Positions 4,081 to 59,071 of a DNA stretch of 64,000 nt are shown here, in pieces. Under the pieces are notes generated by a model. The model made no database searches, was not told where the DNA came from, and saw nothing but the letters and a program-made list of their open reading frames with translations. The DNA comes from Squalus acanthias (lineage: Eukaryota): the NCBI GenBank assembly GCA_030390025.1, contig CM059431.1:107014001-107078000 (forward strand), written 5' to 3'. The position numbers were made by a program, and so were the translations under genes. The first letter of the stretch is position 1, and each line of letters begins with the position of its first letter.

Positions 4081-5839
4081 AAAAAAGAAAGTCTTACAAT
4101 TCTATAGCGCCTTTCATGACCTCAGGACGTCCCAAAGTCCTTTATAGCCACTTTTGAGGTGTAGTCACTGTTGTAATGTAGGAAATGCGGCAGCCAATTT
4201 GTACACAGCAAGCTCCCACAAACAGCAATGTGATAATGACCAGATAATTTGTTTTAGTGGTGTTGATTGAGGGATAAATATAGGCCGGACACCGGGGATA
4301 AAACTTCTACTCTTCTTCGAACTAGTGCCATGGGATCTTTTACATCCACCTGAGAGGGCAGACGGGACCTCAGTTTAACGTCTCATCTGTAAGACGGCAT
4401 CTCCCAATAGCGAAGCACTCCCTCAGTACTGCATTGGTGATTCAGTCTAGATTTTTGTGCTCTAGTCTTCAGGAGGGTATAAGGTTTCCAAAATTTGCAG
4501 ATCCCCAAAACCTAAGGAAAAAGGACTTTGGAACTACCTCAGAGTGATAAAAATGCATTTGGGCCTAAACCTAAGAGACTGTAAGACCAAAACCCAAGTT
4601 TTGGCATTTTAAAAGCATGTCTGGGCCTGTGAAGGGAGAAAAGGCTGTGAAGGAAGTTGGGGTCGACCTCTGCAAAAGCAGTTTTGGGTATTGCAGTTAA
4701 ATTGCATTGTCTGGGGAATCGGGATGACCTCACTCTAGCCCCAGCAAGCATTAACATTTTGACAATAGACCCTAGGAGGAGACAACCCCACCCAAAACAA
4801 CAGGTCCCATCAAACCGATTACAGAACCCATTAAAGACATGCATAAAGCAAATATTCGATCGAAGTCCCAGGCCCAGTCAAGAAAACCAAAACATGAGGA
4901 CAATTCAAACTCCGATTAAACAACAGATCGACAGGATGGAGCTATTTTGAAACCACTTCACATTTACAAAACCAGTTAACACGCTAGTAAAGTCGTTACT
5001 GTTAACGAGGTCTTACAATGACCGGGATTTGATTTGGTTTTGATAAGGCCACTTCAATTTAGTATAATTGAAGGCCCAACAAGAAAAGAAGTGACAACAG
5101 TTCAAGTTCAACAGAAGGCAGTTCTGCAGTTTTGGAGTTCAATTTGAAAGCCTGTTTTTCAGCAGAAGTCAGTGCTGGAATTACAGGGTTCAGGAGAAGC
5201 AAGTTGGGCAGTTAAAGAAGACAGTTCAGTAAGAAGGGAGTTCTCCAGTTCTCCAGTAAAACAGTTCAAGTTCAATAAGCAGGCAGAATGCAGTTTCCAC
5301 AGTTCTGCAAAAAAGGCAGTTCCACAGCTCGGAAGAAGACAGTTTAAACAGAAAGCAGTTCAACAAAGAAAGCCAACAGCTCCAGAAGTTGGCCGACATG
5401 CAAGAAGAGACCAGAGCGACCGCCTCAGTGACCATCAGACACCTCGCGGCAACAAGGGCCTTACGAAACCTTTTACTCAAAAGACTCTAAACCCTAACTC
5501 TCGTTTGGTGAGCATTATCCCTGGTTCTCCAGAGTCCAACCTAGCTTGTGAAGTGGGATTGGGAGGGGTAAAGTATTCTTCTAATGTTATTTCCCTCGCG
5601 TGTACCGAAGTGTTCCCCACCTTTAGAGTGTTAAGAGTGTTTGTGTTGTGTTTTACTTTCTTGAATAAAAGTCAAAATTCTTTCATCGAAACCTGTTGTC
5701 TACTGCATCTTTGTTCACAACCCCCAAATAAGTCCAAGGTCTAGAACCAGGGGCGTGGGAGCGATTCGAACCTGCTCACTGAGTCAGAGGTGAAGCTGAC
5801 CCTACCACACCACCCCCTACAAGGGGGACGTGAATCTAC

Positions 5840-5974: not shown

Positions 5975-6394
5975 AACATAAGAACCTAAGAATATAAGAA
6001 TTAAGAGCTGGAGCAGGCCATTTGGCCCCTCGAGCCTGCTCCGTCATTTAATAAGATCATAGCTGATCCGATTTTGGCCTCAACTCTACTTTCCTTCCTG
6101 TTCCCCATAACCCTTGACTCCCCTGTTGCTCAAAAATCTGTCTATCTCAGCCTTGAATATATTCAATGACTCAGCTTCCACAGCTCTCTGGGGTAAAGAA
6201 TTCCAAAGTTTCACGACCCTCTGAGAGAAGAAATTTCTCCTCATCTCCATCTTAAATGGGCGACCCCTTATTCTGAGACTATGCCCCCTCGTTCTAGATT
6301 CCCCCACGAGGGGAAACATCCTCTCAGCATCTACCCTGTCAAGCCCCCTCAGAATCTTATATGTTTCAATATGATCACCTCTCATCCTTCTAAA
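5975..6394 (-). mobile_element. CR1 LINE 3' end, 5'-truncated
   Basis: ORF 6086-6412 contains RRMRGDHIETYKIL...RTRGHSL...FFSQRVV, followed by the CR1 3' UTR and a short-repeat tail. Confidence 0.9.
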
Positions 6395-6447
6395 GAGAGA
6401 GAGAAGTCGCACAACACCAGGTTATAGTCCAACAGATTTATTTAATT

Positions 6448-6485
6448 TTACAAGCTTTCGGAGCTGTCGCTCCTTCGTCAGGTAA
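6448..6485 (-). ncRNA. Minimal type I hammerhead ribozyme-like motif (left arm)
   Basis: Reverse complement of 7591-7628. Confidence 0.7.
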
Positions 6486-7039
6486 GTTACCAATGAGAGA
6501 ATCTCCCAGAATTCACAATTTAAACCCAGACAAAATCTATTCACATTATTCGCTACAACAAAGAGCACAGCCAAGACAATGAGATGTGTCCCAGGGGGTC
6601 CAACGTGTCAAACCACCTGCTGGCTGCATATCCTGTCAATTTGTGTTCTTGTGTTAGCCTTTTTAAAAAAAAACACCAAAAAAAACCAAAAAAAAAAACA
6701 AAAAAAACACCTGGGAAGACCGGCCATGATGTCAAGTCACGTTCTGTATCGTGACATGAACCCGATATCGCGATTGAGGCCATCCTCATGAGTGCGGAAC
6801 TTGGCTATCAGTTTCTGCTCTATGATTTTGCGCTGTCGTGTATCTCGAAGGCCGCCTTGGAGAACGCTTACCCGCAGATCCGAGGCTGAATGCCCCTGGC
6901 TGCTGAAGTGTTCCCCGACTGGGAGGCAACCCTCCTGCCTGGCGATTGTTGCGCGGTGTCCGTTCATACGTTGTCTCAGTGTCTGCATGGTCTCGCCGAT
7001 GTACCATGCTCTGGAGCATCCTTTACTGCAACGTATCAG

Positions 7040-7351
7040 GTTGTCTACCTGATACGTTGCAGTAAAGGATGCTCCAGAGCATGGTACATCGGCGAGACCA
7101 TGCAGACACTGAGACAACGTATGAACGGACACCGCGCAACAATCGCCAGGCAGGAGGGTTGCCTCCCAGTCGGGGAACACTTCAGCAGCCAGGGGCATTC
7201 AGCCTCGGATCTGCGGGTAAGCGTTCTCCAAGGCGGCCTTCGAGATACACGACAGCGCAAAATCATAGAGCAGAAACTGATAGCCAAGTTCCGCACTCAT
7301 GAGGATGGCCTCAATCGCGATATCGGGTTCATGTCACGATACAGAACGTGA
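7040..7351 (+). pseudogene. Penelope-like GIY-YIG endonuclease domain, 5'-truncated and mirrored on the minus strand at 6737-7041
   Basis: VVYLIRC...AWYIGET.QTLRQRMNGHR...VGEHF...EQKLI..F...GLN matches the PLE GIY-YIG motif set. Confidence 0.9.
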
Positions 7352-7590
7352 CTTGACATCATGGCCGGTCTTCCCAGGTGTTTTTTTTGGTTTTTTTTGG
7401 TGTTTTTTTTTAAAAAGGCTAACACAAGAACACAAATTGACAGGATATGCAGCCAGCAGGTGGTTTGACACGTTGGACCCCCTGGGACACATCTCATTGT
7501 CTTGGCTGTGCTCTTTGTTGTAGCGAATAATGTGAATAGATTTTGTCTGGGTTTAAATTGTGAATTCTGGGAGATTCTCTCATTGCTAAC

Positions 7591-7628
7591 TTACCTGACG
7601 AAGGAGCGACAGCTCCGAAAGCTTGTAA
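7591..7628 (+). ncRNA. Minimal type I hammerhead ribozyme-like motif
   Basis: TTAC-CTGACGA-A-GGAGC-GACA-GCTCC-GAA-AGCT-T-GTAA gives stem I TTAC/GTAA, a CUGANGA core, stem II, GAAA and a palindromic AGCT stem III. Hammerheads are known from PLE pseudo-LTRs. Confidence 0.72.
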
Positions 7629-8099
7629 AATTAAATAAATCTGTTGGACTATAACCTGGTGTTGTGCGACTTCTCATTTTTGTCCACCCCAGTCCAGCGC
7701 CGGCATCTCCACATCATGGCCTTCTAAAGAGAACAGTGGGTGATATGGAGAGGAGCAGTCGTGAGTGGTTCTAACTAACGCATACGCCTAGAAATTGCAA
7801 TTGGCATAAAGCTTGATGCTTTACTGGCAGTGCTGTGTACTGTTTATTTACATTCCACTTCCTCACACAAACCGAATGGCTGAATGAAGAAATTTCACTG
7901 TGAAAGTGAATGTGCTCAATTTATCTTGGGTCAATTAAGCCAGCAGATTGGGTACTCAAGAGAGAAGCACCCATAATTATAGTTATAATGCAATGCTGGT
8001 GCAATGTGTTTATTGGGCACAAATGGAATAGACGTTACTGCAGAGGCTGCAATGGGAAAATTGGAGTCTTTATTTGAATGCGAGCAGCATCAATTTTTC

Positions 8100-16112: not shown

Positions 16113-19100
16113 CAGGAGGTAAATTAAAAAATAGGACCTCAAAGGTAGTAATCTCAGGATTGCTACCAGTGCCACGTGCTAGTCAGTGTAGAAATAGAAG
16201 GATATTTCAGATGAATACGAGGCTAGAGGAATGGTGCAAGGGGGAGGGATTCAAATTCCTGGGACATTGGAACCGGTTCTGGGGGAGGTGGGACCAGTAC
16301 AAACTGGACAGTTTGCACCTGGGCGGGACCGGGACCGATGTCCTTGGGAGAGTGTTTGCTAGTGCTGTTGGGGAGGGTTTAAACTAAAATGGCAGGGAGT
16401 TGGGAACCTGTGCAGGGAAACAGAGGAAAGGGAAGCAAGGATAGAAACAAAAGACAGGAAGGAGAAAAGCATTAGTGGAAGGCAGTGAAATCAAGGCTGT
16501 AAATCAAACAGGGCTACAGTAAATAATAATTTTAAAAGGACTAAAAGTGATAAAAAAAACAAGCCTGAAGGCTTTGTGTCTTAATGCGAGGAGCATTTGT
16601 AATAAGGTGGCTGAATTAGCTGCACAAATATATGTAAACGGATATGATATAATTGGGATTACAGAGACATGGCTCCAGGGTGACCAAGGCTGGGAATTCA
16701 ACATCCAGGGGTATTCAATATTCAGGAAGGACAAGCAAAAAGGAAAAGGAGGTGGGGTAGCATTGCTGATTAAAGAAGAGATTATCACAATAGTAAGGAA
16801 GGATATTAGCTCTGATGATGTGGAATCTGTATGGGTAGAGCTGAGAAATACCAAGGGGCAGAAAACGTTAGTGGGAGTTGTATACAGACCCCCAAACAGT
16901 AATGCTGAGGTTGGGGATGGCATTAAATGGGAAATTAGAGATGCGTGCAATAAGGGCACAGCAGTTATCATGGGTGACTTTAATCTACATATAGATTGGG
17001 CTATCCAAATTAGTAACAATACTGTGGAGGAGGAATTCCTAGAGTGTATACGGGATTGTTTCCTGGACCAATATGTCGAGCAACCAACTAGCGACCAGGC
17101 CATCTTAGACTGGGTATTATGTAATGAGAAAGGGTTAATTAGCAATCTTGTTGTGCGAGGCCCCTTGGGGAGGAGCGATCATAATATGATAGAATTCTTC
17201 ATTAAGATGGTGAGTGAAATAGTTGACTCAGAGACTAGGATCCTGAACTTAAATAAAGGAAACTATGATGGTATGAGGCGCGAGTTGGCAAGGCTGGATT
17301 GGGGAACATTACTTAAAGGGTTGATGGTAGATTGGCAATGGCACACATTTAAAGATTGCATGGATGAACTACAGAATTTGTTCATCCCTTTTTGGCATAA
17401 AAATAAAACAAAAAAGGTGACTCAACCGTGGCTAACAACGGAAATTAGGGACAGCATAAGATCCAAGGAGAGGACATATAAATTGGCCAGAAAAAGCGGC
17501 AAACCTGAGGATTGTGAGCAATTTAGGATTCAGCAAAGGAGGACAAAGGGATTAATTAAGAGGGGGGAAATAGAATATGAGAGTAAGCTTCCAGGGAACA
17601 TAAAAACTGAATGTAAAAGCTTCTATAGAGAAAAAGATTGGTGAAGTCAAGCATAGGTCCCTTGCAGTCAGAATCAGGGGAATTTATAATGGGGAACAAA
17701 GAAATGGCAGACCAATTAAATACATACTTTGGTTCTGTCTTCACAAAGGAGGACACAAATAACCTCCCAAGAGATGTCGGGGAACATAGGGTCTAATGAG
17801 AAGAAGGAATTGAATGAAATCAGGATTTGTAGGGAAATGGTGTTAGGCAAATTGACGGGATTGAAGGCCGATAAATCCCCAGGGCCTGATAATCTACATC
17901 CTAGGGTACTTAATGAAGTGGCCCTAGAAATAGTAGATGCCTTGCTGGTCATCTTCCAAAATTCTATAGACTCTGGAACAGTTCCCATGGATTGGAGGGC
18001 AGCTAATGTAACCCCACTATTTAAAAAAGGTGGCAGAGAGAAAACGGGGAATTATAGACCGGTAAGCCTGACATCGGTAGTGGGCAAAATGCTAGAGTCC
18101 ATTATAAAAGATGTAATAGCAGAGCACTTGGACAACAATGACAGGATCAGACAAAAGTCAACATGGATTTACAAAAGGTAAATCATGTTTGACTAATCTA
18201 CTGGGACTTTTTGAGGATGTAACTGGTAGAATAGATAAGGGTGAACCAGTGGATGTGGTGTATTTGGACTTTTAGAAGGCTTTCGATAAGGTCCCGGATA
18301 AGAGATTAGCATGCAAAGTTAAAGCACATGGGATTGGGGGTAAGGTACTGACTTGGATAGAGAACTGGTTGGCAGACAGGAAGCAAAGAGTTGGAATAAA
18401 TGGATCTTTTTCCGAGTGGCAGGCAGTGACTAGTGGGGTACCGCAGGGATTGGTGCTAGGACCCCAGCTATTCACAATATATATTAATGACCTAGACAAG
18501 GGAACTAGATGTAATATCTCCGCGTTTGCAGACAACACAGAGCTGGGTGGGTGTGTGTGCTGTAAGAAGGATGCAGAGAAACTCCAGTATGATTTGGGCA
18601 GGTTGGGTGATTGGGCAGATGCATGGCAGATGCAGTATAATGTGTATAAATATGAGGTTATCCACTTTAGTGGCAAAAACAGGAAGACAGATTATTATCT
18701 GAACGGCAATAGATTTGGAAAAGGGGACGTGCAACAAGACCTGGGTGTCCTTGTGCACCAGTCGCTGAAGGTAAGCATGCAGGTGCAGCAGGCGGTTAAG
18801 AAGGCAAATGGTATGTTGGCCTTCATAGCGAGAGGATTCGAGTACAGGAGCAAGGCTGTCTTGCTGCAGTTGTACAGGGCCTTGGTGTGACCACACCTTG
18901 AGTATTGAGTGCAGTTTTGGTCGCCTTATCTGAGGAAGGATGTTCTTGCCATGGAGGGAGTGCAGCGAAGATTCACCAGACTGATACCTGGGATGGCAAG
19001 AATGACGTATGAAGAGAGATTGGTTCGATTAGGCTTATATTCGCTTGAGTTTAGAAGAATGAGAGGGGATCTCATTGAAACTTATAAAATTCTAACAGAC

Positions 19101-40249: not shown

Positions 40250-40594
40250 GTGGTGCACATAGGCATCAACGATATAGGTAAAAAACGGGATGAGGTCCTA
40301 AAAGCAGAATATAGGGAGTTAGGAGGTAAATTAAAAAAGAGGACCTCAAAGGTAGTAATCTCAGGATTACTACCAGTGCCACGTGCTAGTCAGAGTAGGA
40401 ATAGGAGGATATTTCAAATGAATACGTGGCTAGAGGAATGGTGCAAGGGGGAGGGATTCAAATTCCTTGGACATTGGAACCGGTTCTGGGGGAGGTGGGA
40501 CCAGTACAAGCGGGATGGTCTGCACCTGGGCAGGGCCGGGACCGATGTCCTAGGGGGAGTGTTTGCTAGTGCTGTTGGGGAGGGTTTAAACTAA
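40250..40594 (+). CDS. CR1 ORF1 SGNH/GDSL esterase-like domain, 5'-truncated
   Basis: VHIGINDI (block III GxND) ... DGLHL (block V DxxH). Confidence 0.85.
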   Translation: MVHIGINDIGKKRDEVLKAEYRELGGKLKKRTSKVVISGLLPVPRASQSRNRRIFQMNTWLEEWCKGEGFKFLGHWNRFWGRWDQYKRDGLHLGRAGTDVLGGVFASAVGEGLN

Positions 40595-43145
40595 AGTGGC
40601 AGGGGGTTGGGAACCTGAGCAGGGAGACAGAGGAAAGGGAAACAAGGATAAAAGCTAAAGACAGGAAGGAGAAAAACAAAAGTAGAAGGCAAAGAACTCA
40701 ACAGTTTAAATCAAACATGGTCACAGTAAATAATAATTCATATAGGTCTGAGAGCGTTAAAAAAACAAGCCTGAAGGCTTTGTGTCTTAATGCAAGGAGC
40801 ATTCGGAACAAGGTGGATGAATTAGCTGCGCAAATAGAGGTAAATGAATATGATTTGATTGGGATTACAGAAACATGGCTCCAGGGTGGCCAAGGCTGGG
40901 AACTCAACATCCAGGGTTATTCAATATTTAGGAAAGATAGGCAAAAAAGAAAGGGAGGTGGGGTAGCATTGCTGGTTAAAGAGGGGATTAACACAATTGA
41001 AAGGAAGGATATTAGCTCTGATGATGCGGAATCTGTATGGGTAGAACTGAGAAATAACAAGGGGCAGAAAACGTTAGTGGGAGTGGTATATAGACATCCA
41101 AACAGTAATACGGAGGTTGGGGATGGCATTAAAAGGGAAATTAGAGAAGCATGCAGTAAGGGCACAGCAGTCATCATGGGTGACTTTCATTTACATATAG
41201 ATTGGGCTAACCAAATTAGTAAAAATACTGTGGAGGAGGAATTCCTAGAATGTTTACGAGATGGTTTTCTGCAACAATATGTCGAGGAACCAACCAGAGA
41301 TCAGGCCATCTTAGACTGGGTATTATGTAACGAGAAAGGATTAATTAGCAATCTTGTTGTACGAGGCCCCTTGGGTCAGAGTGATCATAATATGATAGAA
41401 TTCTTCATTAGGATGGAGAGTGAAGTCGTTGAATCAGAGACTAGGGTCCTGAATTTAAATAAAGGAAACTACGATGGTATGAGGCGCGAGTTGGATAAGA
41501 TTGATTGGGGAATGTCACTCAAGGGGTTGACGGTGGATAGGCAATGGCAAACATTCAAAGACTGCATGGATGAACTACAGAATTTGTTCATCCCAGTTTG
41601 GCACAAGAATAAAACAAAAAGGGTGACTCAAACATGGCTAACAAGGGAAATTAGGGATAGCATAAGATCCAAGGAGAGGGCATATAAATTGTCCAGAAAA
41701 AGCGGTAGCCCTGAGGATTGGGAGCAGTTTAGGATTCAACAAAGGAGGACAAAGGGATTAATTAAGAAGGGGAAAATAGAATATGAAAGGAAGCTTGCTG
41801 GGAACATAATAACTGACTGTAAGAGCTTTTATAGATATGTGAAGAGAAAAAGATTAGTGAAATCAAGTGTAGGTCCCTTGCAGTCAGAAGTGGGGGAAGT
41901 TATAATGGGGAACAAAGAAATGGCAGACCAATTAAATGCATATTTTAGTTCTGTCTTCACAAAGGAGGACACAAATAACCTCCCAGAGATGTTGGAGAAC
42001 ATACGGTCTGATGAAAGGGAGGAACTGAAAGAAATCACTATTTGCAGGGAAATGGTGTTAGGGAAATTGACGGGAATGAAGGCCGATAAATCCCCAGGGC
42101 CTGATAATCTACATCCTAGGGTACTTAAGGAAGTGGCCCTAGAAATAGTAGATGCATTGCTGATCATCTTCCAACATTCAATGGAATGTGGAACTGTACC
42201 CATGGATTGGAGGGTAGCCAATGTTACCCCACTATTCAAAAAGGGTGGTAGAGAGAAAGCAGGGAATTACAGACCGGTAAGCCTGACATCGGTATTGGGG
42301 AAAATGCTGGAGTCCATTATAAAGGATGTAATAGCTGAGCACTTGAAAAACAGTGACAGGATCGGACAAAGTCAACATGGATTTACAAAAGGTAAATCGT
42401 GCTTGACTAATCTACTGGAATTTTTTGAGGATGTAACTGGGAAAATAGATAAGGGAGAACCAGTAGATGTGGTGTATTTGGACTTTCAAATGGCTTTCGA
42501 TAAGGTCCCGCATAAGAGATTAGCATGTAAAGTTAAGGCACATGGGATTGGGGGCAAGGTATTGACTTGGATAGAGAACTGGTTAGCGGACAGAAAGCAG
42601 AGAGTAGGAATTAATGGGTCTTTTTCCGAGTGGCAAGCAGTGACTAGTGGGGTACCGCAGGGATCTTTCCTTGGACCCCAGCTATTCACAATATACATTA
42701 ATGATCTAGATAAGGGAACTAAATGTAATATCTCCAAGTTTGCAGATGACACAAAGCTGGGTGGGAGTGTGTGCTGCGAGGAGGATACTGAGAAACTCCA
42801 GGATGATTTGGACAGTTTGGGTGAGTGGGCAGAAGCGTGGCAGATGCAATATAACGTGGATAAGTGCGAGGTTATCCACTTTGGTGTCAAAAACAGAAAG
42901 GCAGACTATTATCTGAATGACAATAGATTGGGAGAAGGGGAAGTGCAACGAGACCTAGGTGTCCTTGTGCACCAGTCGCTGAAAGTAAGCATGCAGGTGC
43001 AGCAGGCGGTGAAGAAGGCAAATGGTATGTTGGCCTTCATAGCGAAAGGGTTTGAGTATAGGAACAGGGATGTCCTGCTGCAGTTGTACAGTGCCTTGGT
43101 GAGACCACACCTTGAGTACTGTGTGCAATTTTGGTCACCTTATCT

Positions 43146-44865
43146 TGTAGAATTCGCAATATAATCGCGATTTTATAAATAAGGAGAAAACACATAGTTT
43201 CGTTCGAACAGCTTTATTTCAGCAGAATGCTGTCAGGTTTTTCAAAGTGGACACAAGCAGCCTGTAAAATGGCCGCCATGCCTCGTGGCAGAACATTCTA
43301 GACTTTTCGATAAGCAGACAAGATGGCGTTCCAATAAGCATTTGTGCGAGATCGGACAAGACTCAGCACATTTGAGATAAATCACAAGACATAATGGGTT
43401 TGCATTTTACACATAAATACTGGAATCGGTCTCCCAGGTGCGAATAAGGGCTATTGTACAGAGCGATCAAGAACCCATCCAGAGACATTAATATGCAAAA
43501 TCCCCACGACTCTATGATGAGAGAGCCGTTTGCGGGTAGTTACAGAAACATTTGGAAGCCCCAAAAGCCCTCCAGGGAGAATACTGACCAGTTACACAAT
43601 GGGAGAAGTATTAACGGGTACTCAGGCAGTTACAAGTATCACCGAAACCCATTAAACGGAGATCACCCTATACAAGAAGTTTGGGCGCCAAAACCCTAAC
43701 AAAAGAAAAGACATTAAGATTGGGCGGGAAGAGGGGAATTTCAGCACTATAACTGTAAGCTCCAACCGTCCATCTTTCTCTTATCCTCTTGCCTCTTCGC
43801 CTGCGACGCTGTCTTTTGACTCTTGCCGCTTGACTCTTTCTTCGCCTGCGACTCTGACTCTTGCATCTGCCTCTTGCTGCTCGACTTGCTGGAAGACTAT
43901 CGAACTTTCTGATCCGCCAGGATCAACCTCGTGGCTTGCCGCGAAGATCTGTGTGGAACCGGGCTGTGAAGCATTGAAACGGGCACACCATCCCGAGAAG
44001 TCGGTAAACGGTGTTGGAACCGAAGGCCCGAGATGAGATGAGATGAGATGAGATGAGATGAGAAGAGAAGAAGACGACCATACGTATCGCCACGGTCAGT
44101 AAGCCCCGACCGTGCCTGTAGGTCGAATAGACACTTTCCTTGCCCAGGAAGACTATCTTTTGAGTTTTACAGAACTGGCATCGGAAGACCATTCTTCGAG
44201 TTTTATCGCATCGGGGCGAGGGCACAGGAAGACTATTTTTCGAGTCGTGTAAGAACTCCGAGGACAACACAGATCTTCATGACAGCAGACGGTCCAGCCT
44301 GCTAGCCGGAGCAGAAACGAGTAAACAAGTGGGGTACAGAGACCCCTGATCAACACGTGGGTGATCAGGTGCTGCGGTAAAAACATCCGAGCAGAGTTTT
44401 CGGAATTCTCCGAGTTATCACGAGTGGTGAGCATGAGTCTCGATCCTACAAATCTAGTTTAGAGCAGGTATTGATAGGGGAGGGTTTAAGTTTTAAGGAT
44501 AACTGTAATGTGTGCCCCCATTTACGATGTGTCGTTCGTTCCTCGTTTCCCTAAAATTAGTTACATAACTGCGTGTAAGATTGTACTGTCATTAATCTGT
44601 GCTTATGACATGTATTTCGTAATCTCGAATAATATGCAATAAAGATTTTCCATTTCGTACCATTCAACCGGGTCGACCTGAGTTTTCTCTCCATTATTTT
44701 CTCGCATCTAAGTCCAGTGTCAGAACCGTAAGGGCGAGTGGGTCGAACCACTCACAGGTGTCTAGTGCTCCCAGACTGGCTGGAGACCAGAACAGGCAAC
44801 AAGGCCTAACCTCGCACTAGCACCCAGGCTGAGCACAGAGCCACAGGCGTGTCCAAACCCTTACA
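43146..44865 (+). mobile_element. Solo LTR (family C, 1720 bp), 4-bp TSD ATCT
   Basis: TGTA...TACA termini, ATCT at 43142-43145 and 44866-44869, AATAAA at 44638 and no coding content. Confidence 0.92.
44030..44062. repeat. (GAGAT)n microsatellite within the LTR
   Basis: Directly visible. Confidence 0.9.
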
Positions 44866-49789: not shown

Positions 49790-51373
49790 CACTCCACGTG
49801 ATATCAAGAAACTGCAAAGGCAATGGGCCCCGAGAACATCCCGGCTATTGTGCTGAAGACTTGTGCTCCAGAACTAGCCGCGCCTCTAGCCAAGCTGTTC
49901 CAGTACAGCTACAACACTGGCATCTATCCGACAATGTGGAAAACTGCCCAGGTATGTCCTGTCCACAAAATGCAGGACAAATCCAACCCGGCCAATTACC
50001 ACCCTATCACTCTACTCTCAATCATCAGCAAAGTGATGGAAGGTGTCATCAACAGTGCTATCAAGCGGCACTTACACACCAATAACCTGCTCACTGATGC
50101 CCAGTTTGGGTTCTGCCATGACTACTCTGCTCCCGACCTCATTACAGCCTTGGTCCAAACATGGAAAAAGGAGCTGAATTCCGGAGGTGGGGTGAGAGTG
50201 ACTGCCGTTGACATCAAAGCAGCATTTGACTGAGTCTGGCATCAAGGAGCCCTAGTAAAACTGAAGTCAATGGGAATCAGGGGGAAAATGCTCCACTGGC
50301 CGGAGTCATACCTAGCACAAAGGAAGATGGTTGTGGTGGTTGAAGGTCAATCATCACAGCCCTAGGACATAGCTGCAGGAGTTCCTCAGGGCAGTGTCCT
50401 AGGCCCAACCATCTTCAGCTGCTTCATCAATGACCTTCCCTCCAACATAAGGTCAGAAATGGGGATGTTCGCTGATGAGTGCACAGTGTTCAGCACCATT
50501 CACAACTCCACAGATAATGAAGCAGTCCATGCCCGCATGCAACAAGACCTGGATGACGTTCAGGCTTGGGCTGATAAGTGGCAGGTAACATTCACGCCAC
50601 AGAAGTGCCAGGCAATGACTATCTCCAGCAAGCAAGAGTCTAACCACTTCCCCTTGACATTCAATGGCATTACCATCGCCGAATCCCCCACCATCAACAT
50701 CCTGGCGGTTACCATTAACCAGAAACTTAACTGGACCAGCCACATAAATACTGTGGCAACAAGAGCAGGTCAGAGACTGGGTATTCTGCGGCGAGTGTCT
50801 CACTTCCTGACTCCCCAAAGCCTTTCTACCATCTACAAGGCACAAGTAAGGAGTGTGATGGAATACCCTCCACTTGCCTGGATGAGTGCAGCTCCAACAG
50901 CATTCAAGAAGCTCGACACCATCCAGGACAAAGCAGCCCGCTTGATTGGCACCCCATCCACCACCTTAAACATTCGCTCCCTCCACCACCGGCGTACCGT
51001 GGCTGCAGTGTGTACCATCTACAAGATGCACTGCAGCAACTCGCCAAGGCTTCTTCGGCAGCACCTCCCAAACCCGCGATCTCATCCACCTAGAAGGACA
51101 AGGGCAGCAGGCGCATGGGAACACCACCACCTCCAAGTTCCCCTCCAATTCACACACCATCCTGACTTAGAAGTATATCGCCGATCCTTCATCGTCGCTG
51201 GGTCAAAATCCTGGAACTCCCTCCCTAACAGCACTGTGGGAGTACCTTCACCGCACGACTGCAGCGGTTCAAGAAGGCGGCTCACCACCACCTTCTCAAG
51301 GGCAACTAGGGATGGGCAATAAATGCTGGCCTTGCCAGCGACGCCCACATCCCATAAGCGAATAAAAAAAAAA
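49790..51373 (+). mobile_element. LINE family 2, 5'-truncated (RT, 3' UTR, poly-A)
   Basis: ORFs 49823-50233 and 50459-51322 (MFADECT...). Tail is of the same type as at 26270-26372. Confidence 0.92.
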
Positions 51374-52786
51374 CGAGTGACTGGAAGTTATGCCTCACTG
51401 CACCCCTGGTGCCCCAGGAGTTTGATGCCCCAGTGAGCTATTATTATTTCAGCCACTTGAGCTCGATTAAAAAAAAATGTTCCATTGTAAATATATAACC
51501 ATCAGATCACTGTTAGATTATTCACTTGTTTATTATCTGTGTCATAAATTTCTTTCATATTTTAACCTTTGAATTAGATCTGCTGTGATACTCTTTTAAG
51601 ACTGAATTCATACCTAAAATTCAGCCCCGGGGTCGGGAATCGGAGTCCCCCCCCCCAGCCCTTGTAGGGGGTGGTGGTTTGTGTCAGCTTTACCTCTGAC
51701 TTCTGAGCGGTTCGAATCGCTCCCACTCCCTTGGTTCTAGACCTTGGACTTATTTGGGGGTTGTGATACAAAGGTGCAGCAGACAACTGAGTTTGATGAA
51801 AGAACTTCAATCTTTATTAAAAGGTAAGACACAAATAATAACACTCTTAACACTCTAAAGGTGGGGAACACTTCGGTACAGGCGAGGGAAATGACAGTAG
51901 AACAATTACTTCACCCCTCCCAACCCCACTTTACTAGCTAAGTTAGGTTTTGAAGGACCAGGGATAATGCTCACCAATCCTTTGACAGTTGGGCTAAATC
52001 GCGGTTTTGGTGTTCGCTGTTTATGGCGGTTAGTGTCTGCCGTACCCCGTACGCAGTAGAGGACTTCACCTGAGTCTCTGGTCAGTCTTCGCGAGTCCGC
52101 TGATGCGGTAGGATGTCGTTTTGGATTTATCTGGTGAGTACCGAATTTCTTTGGTTTAGCAGTAGGGTTTAGAGTCTTTGGGGAAAATCTTACCCAGGGG
52201 TAAGTCAGGAGTAGTTTGTAGTGTGGAAACTTTGTGGTTCTTCGGGTTTTCTTCCCTGGAGTTGGTCTTTGTTGGTCGCGGTGGCCTGCTATTACCCGGT
52301 CAGTTGGGGGTAATATACGATTGTTGGTTTTGTGAGGCCTTTGGTTTCCGTGATGGCTTTAGGCCTTGTTTAGTGTGTCGGTCGACTTCGTGGAGCCGTC
52401 GGTGACTTGTTGCTGCTTGTTGCTCCGGGTGACTGTGTTGGGACCATTGTTGGAGGTCCGTCGAGGTGGTATCTTCACGAGCTGGACTCAGGTGTGTCTG
52501 AGTGGTGAGCGATGCCGACTCGCTTCCAGCTTGGGTTTCCTTCTTCTGATGACCACCGGTTGCGACTGACTGCTTGCTCCCAACTTTGAACTGTTGTAAC
52601 TCCTTGATGGGCCTTCAATTATACCAAATTGAAGTGGCCTTATCTACCCGCCAAATCTACTCAGTTCATTGTCTGGTTTTTGGCGGGCTCGTAAATCGGT
52701 AATGAATTACTAGCACGTTAACTGGGTTTTTAACAAATTGAGAAGTCGCACAACACCAGGTTATAGTCCAACAGCTTTATTTGAAA

Positions 52787-52823
52787 TCACAAGCTTTCGG
52801 AGCGTTGCTCCTTCGTCAGGTGA
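52787..52823 (-). ncRNA. Minimal type I hammerhead-like motif in the inverted pseudo-LTR
   Basis: Reverse complement of 54523-54559 with one loop change. Confidence 0.68.
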
Positions 52824-52992
52824 AGTGAAGAGATGCATATAGGCACAGCATATATAGTCAGAGAACAATGCCAGATGATTACAGTTAATCTTTCTAACTG
52901 CCCTTTATCACACCTCGGCAGAGAGATAATCACGGCAATCAAAGGTGTGGATGGTGTCCAAACAGGTCAGTCAGGAAAACATTACATCAAAG

Positions 52993-54190
52993 ACCAGTTT
53001 TTTACCCAAACACACGGAACAGCCATGGGGACCAAATTCGCACCCCAATACGCCAACATCTTCATGCACAAGTTCGAGGAAGACTTCTTCGCTGCACAGG
53101 CCCTCCAACCAACGCTATACACCAGATACATCAACGACATTTTCTTCCTATGGACCCACGGCGAAGAATCACTGAAAAGACTACACGATAACATCAACAA
53201 GTTCCATCCCACCATCAAACTCACCATGGACTACTCCTCAGAATCGGTTTCATTCTTGGACACACGAATCTCCATCAAAGACGGACACCTCAGCACTTCA
53301 CTCTACCGCAAGCCCACGGACAACCTCACGATGCTCCACTTCTCCAGCTTCCACCCTAACCACGTTAAAGAAGCCATCCCCTATGGACAAGCCCTGCGAA
53401 TACACAGGATCTGCTCAGATGAGGAGGAACACGATGGACACCTACAGACGCTGAAAGACGCCCTCGTAAGAACGGGATATGACGCTCGACTCGGGCCACA
53501 GCGAAAAATCGCATAGACCTCCTCAGAAGACAAACACGGGACGAAACCAGCAGAGTACCCTACGTCGTCCAGTACTTCCCCGGAGTGGAGAAACTACGCC
53601 ATGTTCTTCGCAGCCTTCAACATGTCATCGATGACGACGAACACCTCGCTAAGGCCATCCCCACGCATCTACTACTAGCCTTCAAACAGCCGCCTAACCT
53701 CAAATAGACCATCGTTCGCAGCAAATTACCCAGCTTTCAGGAGAACAGCGACCACGACACCACACAACCCTGCCACGGCAACCTCTGCAAGACATGCCAA
53801 ATCATCAACACAGATACCATCATCACACGTGAGGACAAAACCCACCAGGTACATGGTACATACTCATGTGACTCGGCCAACGTCGTCTACCTCATACGTT
53901 GCAGGAAAGGATGCCCCGGAGCATGGTGCATTGGCGAGACCATGCAGACACTGCGACAACGTATGAACGGACACCGCGCAACAATCGCCAGGCAGGAGTG
54001 TTACCTCCCAGTCGGGGAACACTTCAGCAGTCAAGGACATTCAGCCTCTGATCTTCGGGTTAGCGTTCTCCAAGGCAGCCTTCGAGACACACGACAACGC
54101 AAAATCGTCGAGCAGAAACTGATAGCCAAGTTCCGCACCCATGAGGACAGCCTCAACCGGGATCTTGGGTCATGTCACGCTACATGTAAC
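52993..54190 (+). pseudogene. PLE reverse transcriptase C-terminal half, Cys-rich linker and GIY-YIG endonuclease (disrupted)
   Basis: QTHGTAMG...RYINDIF (YIDD variant), FLD, LYRKPT, PCHGNLCKTC (Neptune-type linker), NVVYLIRC...IGET. Frameshift near 53490 and stop at about 53705. Confidence 0.92.
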
Positions 54191-54191
54191 C

Positions 54192-54230
54192 CCACCTGAC
54201 GTAGAGTCATCCAGACTCGAGTCGTCGTTG
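54192..54230 (+). ncRNA. Degenerate second hammerhead-like motif
   Basis: CTGACGT-A-GAGTC-ATCCA-GACTC-GA: stem II is intact but the core is mutated. Confidence 0.45.
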
Positions 54231-54522
54231 GCTTGTTCTCTCTACCCAGATGCGGCTGGACCTGCTGTGATTTCCAGCAAAAAAAGTTTTTTTGTTTTCC
54301 ATACAGACCCCAGCATCTGCCACATCTGACCCCTTGTGACCCCACTTCATGGTCTTTGATGTAATGTTTTCCTGACTGACCTGTTTGGACACCATCTACA
54401 CCTTTGATTGCCGTGATTATCTCTCTGCCGAGGTGTGATAAAGGGCAGTTGGAAAGATTAACTGTAATTATCTGGCAGTGTTCTCTGCCTATTTATGCTG
54501 TGCCTATATGCATCTCTTCACT

Positions 54523-54559
54523 TCACCTGACGAAGGAGCAGCGCTCCGAAAGCTTGTGA
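54523..54559 (+). ncRNA. Minimal type I hammerhead ribozyme-like motif
   Basis: TCAC-CTGACGA-A-GGAGC-AGC-GCTCC-GAA-AGCT-T-GTGA. Confidence 0.72.
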
Positions 54560-55731
54560 TTTCAAATAAAGCTATTGGACTATAACCTGGTGTTGTGCGA
54601 CTTCTCACATTTGTCAACCCCAGTCCAACACCGGCATCTCCACATCAGGGTTTTTAACAGACATTCAATCTCACCCATTGAACATGGCCTTATCTACCCG
54701 CCAAATCTACTTAGTTCATTGTCTGATTTTTGGCGGGCCTGTTACCAGTAACTGCTCTGTAAGTGTCAAATGGGTTTTGGGATGGTTTGCATCCTGTCGA
54801 TCTCCTTGGCTGATCACTGGTGATTGGTTTCGTGTTTTGGGTTTCTAGGCTGGACTCAGTCTTTTCTATAGCCTGGTCCTGAGTGATTTGTATTATGCAT
54901 GTTTTCTGATGGGCCCTATAATCGGTTTGATGGGGCCTGTTGTTTTGGGTGGGACTGTCTTCTCCCAGGGTCTATTGTCAAAATGTTAATGCCTGCTGGG
55001 GCTTGAGTAGGATCATCCCGGTTCCCCAGACAGTGCAATTAACTGCAATAACCAAAACTGCTTTTACAGAGGTCGAACCCAACTTCCTTCACACCCTTTT
55101 CTCCCTTTACAGGCCCAGACATGTTTTTAAAATGCCAATACTTGGCTTTTGGTCTTAAATTCCTTAGGTTAGGCCCAAATTCATTTTTATCACTCTGAGG
55201 TAGTTCCAAAGTCCTTCTTTCCTTAGGTTTTGGGGATCTGTAAATTTTGGAAACCTTACACTCCCCCATGGCTTGGAACCGCCCGCCCCCCCCCCCCCCC
55301 AAACCATCCTGGGCCCAGCACCTACCTGGTCCAGTGGCCACCTGGTCAGCGTTCCCCACACAACTGGAAGCCAGCCTGTCAGGCAGGCTGACTTCCGAGC
55401 GGGGCACCCACCCTTTCCGCCGCACGCACGATGTGGATTCCCGCCATCTCCTGGATCCGCCCCCCCCGCACTGTGCGGGCAGGTCCCGGGAAAACCCAGC
55501 CCAATGTAACAGTTCCTAACAGCACTGCACCAGTGCCAGCCTTGATTATGTGTTCAAGTTTTATATAGCAAGGGGCTGGAAACCACAGCTTCTGACTCCG
55601 GAAGGCAGGCATGCTGTTCTTGAATCAAGCTGTCACGCTCAGTGTCAGCTGAATTGCATGGGCTGGCAAGTAAACCAGCACACATAACTTTCACAGAAAG
55701 TATCTTCGTATTGCATACTAATGATATGTTG

Positions 55732-56864: not shown

Positions 56865-58099
56865 GGGGTACGGTAGCATAGTGGTAATGTTACTGGACTA
56901 TGAGTTCAAATACCACCACGGCAGCTGGGGAATTTAAATTCAGTTGATTAAATAAATCTGGAATAAAAAGCTAGGGCACGATCTTGCCAGCCCTGGAGAG
57001 GTGGGTTTGGAGGCGGGACTGCCGGGAAAATGGCAGAATCTGGGGGCGGGTGCCCGTCCCGCCCCCAACCCGCCTCCGTGCCATCTTCCCAGGAGGCGGG
57101 TAGCCGACCCACGCCGGGTCCCGTCTCCTGGAGGTGGAAAGGGGATTACAGCCACTTAACAGCCTGTTAACAGGTAGTTAGCAGGCAGTTAAGAGGATTA
57201 TCCCCATTTTTCCCACAGAGGCGCGGGCTTCCCGACATCGGGAAACCTCGCCAGGGTCACCGAGGCGAGCAGTGGGTCTGCGGGGGTCGGAGGGGTGCAA
57301 AAGTGCGCTGTGCAGGTGAGTGATGGGTGCAAGTGTGGAGAGGTGAATATGTGAGGTGAGTGGAAAGTGGTTACTTACTTTTGTTTCTTCCTGCAGGCTT
57401 CAACAGTTGGGGATGTGGAGACTCTTGCATCTCAATGGCAGAGATGACAGATGGCAGCTGCATTCTCCAATGCAACAGCCATCTAATTTCTGCTCACAAA
57501 AGAGGTTTGAGGAATCTTGAATACCAGAACTCATCAAACAACAGAGAGTGTCAGTGTTTGACAGCTTCACAAAGCTGTCTAACGATGACAATCCATCTGT
57601 CAAAAATTTTTGACAGATGAAATGTCATACGCTGACATTCTCTGTAACCGGCTTCCCCTTAATTGGCCTGCTAAGCCTGTTGGGCGGGCTTAACAAAGTC
57701 AATCAAGGGAAAATAGCGTGGGTTGGCCACAAGTCGATGGAGGCGGGACTAAAACCCGACAAGCAGCAGTCCCGCCTCCAACGTGCCCCCATTGACAAAA
57801 TCGCCCCCCAAGTATCAGTAATAGTGACCATGAAACTATCGGATTGTCGTAAAAACCCATCTGGTCCACTAATGTCCTTTCGGAAAGGAAATCTGTCGTC
57901 CTTACCCGGTCTGGCCTATATGTGACTCCAGATCCACAACAATGTGGTTGACTCTTAACTGCCCTCTGAAATGGCCTAGCAAGCCACTCAGATGTATTTA
58001 AGAAGGCGGCTGACCACCACCCTCTCGAGGGAAATTAGGGATGGGCAATAAATGCTGGCCTTTCCAGCGATGTCCACATCCCATGAATGAAAAAAAAAT
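56865..58099 (+). mobile_element. tRNA-derived SINE with a LINE-family-2 3' tail, split by a MITE at 56974-57808
   Basis: A box TAGCATAGTGG, B-box-like GAGTTCAAATAC and tail AAGAAGGCGGCT.ACCACCACC...GGGATGGGCAATAAATGCTGGCC followed by an A run. Confidence 0.8.
56974..57808 (+). mobile_element. Harbinger-type MITE (copy 1)
   Basis: Termini GGGCACGATCTTGCCA / TGACAAAATCGCCCC. Imperfect TSD CTA/CAA. Confidence 0.82.
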
Positions 58100-58265: not shown

Positions 58266-59071
58266 GGGCTGATTTTGCCAATGGGGAGCTTTTGGATGCG
58301 GGACTCCCACTTGTCGGGTTTCAGTCCCGCCTCCATCGACTTGTGACCAAACCATGCTATTTTCCCTTGATTGACCTTATTAAGCCCGTGCAGTGGGCTT
58401 AGCAGGCCAATTAAAGGAAAGCCGGTTACAGAGAACGTCAGTGTGTGTCGTTTCATCTGTCAAAAATTTTGACAGATGAATTGTCATCGTTTGGCAGCTC
58501 TGTGAAGCTGTCAAACACTGACATTCTATGTTGTTTGATGAGTTCTTGTATTCAAGACTCATGAAACCTCTTTCTTTAGCAGAAATTAGATGGTTGTTGC
58601 ATTGGTGAATGCAGCAGCCATCCGTCATCTCTGCCGGTGCGAAGCGAGACTCTCCGCATCCTCAACGATTGAAGCCTGCAGGAAGAAACAAAGGTAAGTA
58701 AACATTTTCTATCACTTTCCACTCACCTCACATACTTACCTCTCCACACTTGCACCCATCACTTACCTCCACAGTGCACTTTTGCACCCCTCCGACCCCC
58801 GCAGACCCACTGCTCGCCTCGCTGACCCTGGCAGGATTCGGAGCCTTCGGGAAGCCCGCACTTGTGTGGGTAAAATGGGGATAATCCTCTTATCTGCCTG
58901 TTAACTACCTGTTAACAGGCAGTTAAGTGGCTGTAATCCCCTTCCCGCCTCCAAGGAGACGGGACCCGGCACGGAGGCGGGTTGGGGGCAGGATGGGCAC
59001 CCGCCCTCAGATTCTGTCATTTTCCCGCAGTCCCGCCTCCAAACCCCCCCAGGGCTGGCAAGATCGCGCCC
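58266..59071 (-). mobile_element. Harbinger-type MITE (copy 2, inverted), TSD CTC
   Basis: Reverse-complement homolog of 56974-57808. CTC at 58263-58265 and 59072-59074. Confidence 0.85.

Follow-up and report, generated by a model that had tools for sequence, protein, structure and literature searches.

The motif at positions 7591-7628 of the window, by which we mean the whole 64,000-nucleotide stretch of Squalus acanthias DNA analysed here, is very probably an ordinary minimal type I hammerhead ribozyme carried in the pLTR of an endonuclease-bearing (EN+) Penelope element (PLE), probably of the Neptune group, in which cutting is conditional and of which the window copies are passengers, most likely silent. 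At the level of sequence, the secondary structure and the core are conserved and covary across the family, and selection acts on the parent elements, not on the window copies.

The window holds four such motifs, one in each arm of two insertions (element 1 and element 2; features lie on the + strand unless marked −). In the right arm of element 1, stem I is formed by TTAC (7591-7594) and GTAA (7625-7628), the core (7595-7601) is followed by an extra A (7602), stem II consists of GGAGC/GCTCC (7603-7607 and 7612-7616) with the loop GACA, and GAAA (7617-7620) runs into the palindrome AGCU (7620-7623), with the predicted cut after CUU at 7624/7625. Its left-arm counterpart (6448-6485, −) has the same GACA loop and a predicted cut between 6452 and 6451. 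The right-arm motif of element 2 (54523-54559) has a stem I of TCAC (54523-54526) and GTGA (54556-54559), the loop AGC and a predicted cut after CUU at 54555/54556, and its left-arm motif (52787-52823, −) has the loop AAC and a predicted cut between 52791 and 52790. All four share the GGAGC/GCTCC stem II and the extra A, and all follow the type I order, with CUGANGA core, GAAA and NUH present. A search for the core alone placed the four cores at 7595 (+), 6481 (−), 54527 (+) and 52819 (−), among 14 window matches against 5.7 expected, whilst a full descriptor (core, stem II of at least 3 bp, NUH, and stem I of at least 3 bp) returned exactly four matches in the whole window, those of the four expected arms, and none in either 768,000 bases of Markov-shuffled window or 184,374 bases of 33 unrelated loci. 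Core search and descriptor thus confirm the four motifs, stems, extra A and predicted cuts listed in an earlier note made from the letters alone, and the position after CUU is borne out as a sequence-based prediction.

Folded in isolation, each window motif forms both stem I and stem II, at modest z-scores (−1.1 to −2.4). Rfam gave no match in the window at gathering score, and no hammerhead model was among its four weak matches at 7500-7720. A monomeric helix III is absent, and AGCU, whose self-duplex is worth −2.5 kcal/mol, can form stem III only between two copies, as the earlier note's palindromic stem III had it. Every stem I pair is Watson-Crick in the homodimer model, and a heterodimer of elements 1 and 2 would pair as U-G in one direction and as C-A in the other.

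Element 1 is bounded by a 13-bp target-site duplication (6386-6398, identical to 7720-7732); in random pairs drawn from the window, matches of at least 12 were seen in 2 of 2981. Its left arm (6401-7041, −) is an inverted copy of the EN 3′ end and the pLTR, without the tail, and its arms are identical at 628 of 629 aligned bases with a single 12-nt gap in a T-tract, making a near-perfect palindrome (6401-7675) around a 5-nt loop at the fold-back centre (7042-7046, no strand assigned). Positions 7040-7041 are used by both arms, a 2-nt microhomology at which we infer the cDNA to have snapped back. The C-terminal GIY-YIG endonuclease fragment (7040-7351) runs for 103 aa up to the stop, passes the Pfam GIY-YIG cut-off (E 8e-5) and is 90% identical to protein P0006, and the tail (7676-7719), found on the right side only, ends in an ATG (7716-7718). 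This ATG is a candidate ORF start that may coincide with the RT start point; it stands in a good Kozak-like context, many genomic copies terminate at 7717, and no shark N-terminus for it was found among the cluster members of P0006, P0008 and P0020.

Element 2 has a 12-bp target-site duplication (52724-52735, identical to 54648-54659), a left arm (52739-52996, −) that is an inverted pLTR copy without tail and matches 54350-54607 at 250 of 258 positions, a 5′-truncated and frameshifted RT-linker-EN coding region (52992-54169), for which tblastn against P0006 gave 94% in one frame and 90% in another, and a tail (54608-54647) identical to that of element 1 at 36 of 42 positions. A few bases are common to both sides of its junction. 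Its linker carries a CX4CxxC motif, CHGNLCKTC, and element 1 is truncated past this point. One of the eight arm mismatches falls inside the 37-nt motif, namely the AGC versus AAC loop; as these two loops belong to the arms of one insertion, the difference would have arisen after insertion, by decay rather than as family variation. The stem II loop therefore does vary between GACA, AGC and AAC, as had been noticed earlier, but the last two are a single loop that has presumably decayed in one arm.

Other repeats lie in the window. A 62-bp direct repeat (94%; 52628-52688 and 54677-54738) brackets element 2 outside its target duplication, part of this repeat matches 4964-5083 on the opposite strand, and judged from these matches element 2 seems to sit inside another repeat. 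A second long inverted repeat, with arms of ~680 bp (57129-57807 and 58266-58953) that are 85-90% alike and a different repeat between them, contains no hammerhead and no match to a PLE protein, and is possibly a fold-back or DNA-transposon remnant. LINE ORF2 remnants (APE endonuclease and/or RT) occupy 40570-43164, 16523-17644 and 50366-51322, including an open frame of 864 codons.

The host is an EN+ PLE, in which RT is followed by a C-terminal GIY-YIG EN with a CCHH motif, and the hammerheads lie downstream of the EN stop within the repeated arms, i.e. the pLTR. Together with the core and the palindrome, this location upholds the identification as a PLE minimal type I hammerhead. Proteins named Heptranchias perlo share 95% identity with the RT fragment of element 2, and other named shark proteins among its 82 matches share 74-87%. 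A CX2-5CxxC motif in the RT-EN linker is present in Neptune and Nematis and lacking in Penelope/Poseidon (PMC8557442), and on this motif, not on a tree, the element is probably of the Neptune group; the sample described in a 2026 preprint comprises Neptune, Poseidon, Hydra and Naiad, with no Nematis reported in the portion available (bioRxiv 10.64898/2026.07.22.740005).

The family is very abundant in the shark: 9742 contigs of genomic run X3 fell on 7440-7800 with ~55% of the run read, and the depth steps of this run near 7676 and 7717, the latter with 52 loose ends, correspond to the arm end and the tail end. Elements 1 and 2 are 90% identical in EN and ~88% in the block from hammerhead to tail, and a BLAST comparison of their 3′ UTRs gave no match, similarity restarting at stem I. 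The intervening 3′ UTR/promoter regions (7352-7588 and 54195-54519) are unrelated, which, between such similar flanks, suggests UTR or promoter swapping between subfamilies. None of the 19 substitution sites listed in three genomic runs falls in 7592-7628, 7641-7676 is likewise free of listed variants, and two of the three listed indels lie in the stem II loop. An AATAAA (7634-7639), 9 nt past the predicted cut, recurs on all four window arms and shows no listed variant at or above 3% in the genomic runs. Ends of the element 2 type appear in the runs only as clipped loose ends, and a common shark subfamily keeps A at 7627 and has 7629-7630 changed. Where a subfamily has C at 7591, the outer pair had first looked broken to us, a reading that we withdrew, since depth at 7628 exceeds that at 7591 more than tenfold and a partner change would drop below the 3% listing threshold. 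In run X13, a single contig with a loose end before 7607 is a fold-back copy of extreme truncation, its halves meeting head to head in a palindrome whose centre lies just upstream of stem I; it has G at N7 and a stem II G-U pair as in one distant relative (L003, below). In run X15, a loose end of one or few contigs has a two-sided stem II change with a damaged core. Neither this change nor the X13 wobble was counted. In raw RNA run X21, which is no test of cleavage or RNA ends, 0 of ~10 million reads mapped to the stretch.

The earlier note had argued that the RNA fold is under selection from a paired double change in stem I between the two elements. The change is present, but it amounts to a single base pair whose 5′ side can be aligned just as well by placing a 1-nt insertion in element 2, the bases just outside stem I differ too and a column shuffle gives p 0.5, and we reject this comparison alone as evidence of covariation. 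That the fold is under selection is supported instead by distant relatives, which were found by an EN profile search of metagenome contigs that yielded five loci (L001-L005). Three of these are convincing, with EN identities of 63% (L001), 50% (L002) and 86% over a short segment (L003), and all three carry the motif ~210-280 nt after the EN stop. L004 and L005 were marginal (E 1e-4, 15-18 residues), had neither a tblastn match to full PLE proteins nor the motif, and were excluded from every count. No relative turned up when the EN profile was run on viral contigs, and strict motif patterns matched nothing in either viral contigs or prokaryote genomes; of the loci found with looser patterns (9 and 24), 0 of 33 had an upstream core or a PLE protein match, and these were dropped as chance and kept as background. 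In L001 (1-702), RT codons on one strand are joined to EN codons on the other near position 170, a strand switch which indicates that L001 is likewise an inverted, truncated insertion. By eye, TATA-like and initiator-like words stand just upstream of stem I in element 2, L001 and L003; the AATAAA is absent in L001-L003.

An anchor-based count over elements 1 and 2 and L001-L003 finds Watson-Crick pairing in 20 of 20 stem I cells, and each of the four pairs has changed on both sides. The exact shuffle p is 1e-4; leaving out L002, whose motif had first been noticed by eye, it is 0.016. The next four positions (5-8), taken as a control, are paired in 7 of 20 (p 0.6). These counts cover five elements only and carry no correction for relatedness. 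A tool-based count on five rows without L002 found 43 of 43 cells paired and four pairs changed on both sides, with 1 of 500 shuffles as high and 27-51% pairing when partners were slid; L002 is missing from this count because MAFFT misaligned its hammerhead, and it enters the anchor-based count only.

The L002 hammerhead (L002:1780-1814, behind EN) combines a stem I of 5 bp with a stem II of 3 bp, its stem III is nearly palindromic, and core positions 3 and 8 are G and C, so that the 3-8 pair is kept as G-C. It is recovered by a descriptor that accepts every Watson-Crick combination at 3-8, and the same descriptor has no hit in 131,400 bases of the shuffled L002 3′ region. The natural covariant on record is U3-A8; G3-C8 is on record as a variant that was tested or a rescue that was engineered (PMC3088659, PMC3884650, PMC6155905, PMC8495972). 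From its sequence, L002 is apparently a natural form of the engineered C3G/G8C rescue, and we found no natural G3-C8 core in a literature search outside which most subscription papers fell.

The motif is of a kind known since 2014 and matches the descriptions of Cervera and De la Peña 2014 and Frangieh 2024, including the opposite-strand pairs. The former study (Cervera and De la Peña 2014, PMC4209133) reported minimal hammerheads in the pLTRs of metazoan PLEs, including Xena, Poseidon and Neptune of fishes, in families rich in compensatory changes and with opposite-strand pairs 100-700 bp apart; the opposite-strand pairs, extra nucleotide, palindrome and compensatory changes of the earlier note are thus all already in that paper. 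Its motifs share with ours the CUGANGA with one extra base, G10.1-C11.1, a palindromic 15.2-16.2, a 4-bp helix I, the lack of a monomeric helix III, the position behind EN and a second, opposite-strand motif on a 5′-truncated element (main text and Fig. S4A legend). In its Fig. S3, a turtle motif shares the G-C-U-U after GAAA with the window motifs and a lamprey motif shares the UCAC/GUGA helix I of element 2; we found no chondrichthyan in its Table S1 or Fig. S3 list, and the core variant that the paper reports is U3-A8; we did not come across the G3-C8 of L002 in it. Such minimal hammerheads cleave poorly even as dimers, with low cleavage in multimers only (PMC4209133).

As far as the accessible texts go, the sole PLE hammerhead tested with its own protein is that of the Anolis carolinensis Poseidon element PAc (Frangieh et al. 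2024, PMC11167929), where cleavage required the protein and was dispensable for insertion in vitro, and where RNA-seq ends at the cut were not found. PAc resembles our elements in having the hammerhead followed by two RT start points that bound the tail, inserted copies that keep the uncut site, and an AC-rich tail. It differs in being of the Penelope/Poseidon type with an ORF starting at stem II, whereas the window motif has no ATG there and a candidate ATG at the tail end, and the window element has the CX2-5CxxC motif in its EN linker. The target-site duplications, inverted pLTRs and one-sided tails, all present in the window insertions, agree with the known insertion anatomy of EN+ PLEs (Arkhipova et al. 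2013, PMC3846280; Craig et al. 2021, PMC8557442), which includes an inverted 5′-truncated copy, a palindromic junction, a one-sided tail of 30-40 bp and a short duplication; the window tails (40-44 nt) and duplications (12-13 bp) are slightly longer than the 31-bp tail and 8-10 bp duplications of rotifers. Non-LTR retrozymes, with one chondrichthyan reported, also have a type I hammerhead derived from PLE pLTRs (bioRxiv 10.64898/2026.07.22.740005); those are head-to-tail non-coding tandem arrays, and we rejected this assignment for the window copies, whose arms are inverted and which hold RT/EN remnants. Our literature searches found no paper on a shark PLE hammerhead.

Beyond the hammerhead, the pLTR end could pair with the tail in a 9-bp stem, 7642-7650 with 7691-7699 in element 1 (7642-7699) and 54573-54581 with 54622-54630 in element 2 (54573-54630), the latter with one mismatch at 54574 where the left arm retains the pairing base. 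This stem spans both insertion ends (pLTR end and tail end) and is kept in relatives with 50-63% EN identity. Over five elements, 43 of 44 cells are paired and four pairs have changed on both sides, three of them through L002, with 13 of 500 shuffles as high; a second count gave 43 of 45 paired (p 0.028), and the covariation, weak as it is in these alignments, is no more than suggestive. By eye, the tail of elements 1 and 2 could alternatively pair with 7656-7664. Compared by position only, the stem resembles the AC-rich stem-loop at the RT start of the Anolis element (PMC11167929). Hammerhead folding is predicted to be high with 10 nt of downstream sequence and to fall with 51 nt in elements 1 and 2, L002 and L003, not in L001; when the tail is added, the predicted refolding is full in element 1, partial in L002 and L003, absent in the right arm of element 2 and irrelevant in L001. 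On these folding predictions one could propose a two-part RNA switch across distant Neptune-type PLEs, in which the pLTR end masks the ribozyme until the tail stem forms and releases it. We regard this model as tentative and rather unlikely; masking before the protein binds, or without the tail, would explain both the protein dependence in Anolis and the uncut templates.

In the reading that we favour, an active parent with tandem pLTRs would, going by known PLE biology, give a transcript with two sense motifs, and these would pair through the AGCU palindrome as stem III and through swapped stem I strands; alternatively to a dimer, a single motif might fold with the help of the element's own RT-EN protein. 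A full-length parent of this tandem form was not seen in the DNA analysed. The RNA would be cut slowly and conditionally after CUU, and the cut would trim or inactivate multi-unit transcripts. Reverse transcription would start on uncut RNA ~51 or 92-95 nt downstream, at the pLTR end or the tail end, so that the cut would not be the insertion-defining step. Both insertions retain the uncut site and ~92-95 nt beyond it, which implies that the template was uncut or re-ligated. The window copies would be 5′-truncated products, their inverted pLTRs arising as the cDNA folded back (element 1) or jumped onto itself, the newly made strand (element 2). As the paired motifs lie on opposite strands, no transcript of one insertion would contain two sense copies, and there is no dimer partner in cis. 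The earlier note was correct that a transcript of either strand holds one sense motif and its antisense copy, but this removes rather than supplies the partner. In a transcript of the whole of element 1, the predicted probability of stem II is 0.00, its motif being buried, by prediction, in a 630-bp duplex. The working window copies which that note implied are therefore not upheld, given the opposite strands, the lost stem II and the retained uncut site, and the hammerheads are most likely inherited passengers, silent in place.

The alternative that survives best, although we consider it improbable, is that cleavage is obligatory, with a double cut of tandem transcripts releasing a unit-length RNA that is circularised and copied into more-than-unit cDNA, as put forward by Cervera and De la Peña (PMC4209133). 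The intact site in the inserted DNA would likewise follow from a re-ligated circle, and the covariation of the core, including the 3-8 pair, indicates that catalytic geometry is kept; however, the cut is not where the ends of insertions gather, these being grouped at the pLTR end and the tail end, and hammerhead mutants were without effect on insertion of the Anolis element in vitro (PMC11167929). Somewhat less probable again is a fold without a meaningful rate of cutting, which would serve together with the downstream stem as a module for folding or for binding protein. In conservation the downstream GGACT/AGTCC block equals the hammerhead, misfolding with 51 nt downstream is predicted in four of five elements, and RNA ends at the cut are absent in Anolis (PMC11167929), yet every catalytic core base is retained, and the covarying 3-8 pair is G-C in L002, a double substitution that is known to restore cleavage (PMC8495972, PMC11167929).

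We think it very unlikely that the window copies are themselves active or co-opted and cut host transcripts running through them. All four motifs are intact and an AATAAA follows the cut, but a sense partner is missing within each insertion and the stem II of the element 1 hairpin is not predicted to form; element 1, with its near-identical arms, is simply young, and element 2 has one of its eight arm mismatches in the 37-nt motif, as neutral decay predicts. Finally, the lack of an Rfam hammerhead match and the modest folding z-scores might point to a chance resemblance or a fold-back assembly chimera, but this carries next to no weight against the empty 768-kb shuffle, the target-site duplications around both insertions with their one-sided tails and the motif at the homologous place in all three convincing relatives, and as a reading of the motif, chance is refuted.

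On the preferred reading, a conditional pLTR hammerhead inherited by silent copies, the known range of a PLE feature now takes in a shark family of very high abundance, together with a small, clean set of covarying sequences. Little is likely to hang on the two window copies in their own right. What PLE hammerheads do is still described as open (PMC8557442), and the family offers a compact system for testing it: its two natural forms of stem I are predicted to be compatible as heterodimers in one direction only, its downstream stem is conserved, and a relative has a natural G3-C8 core.
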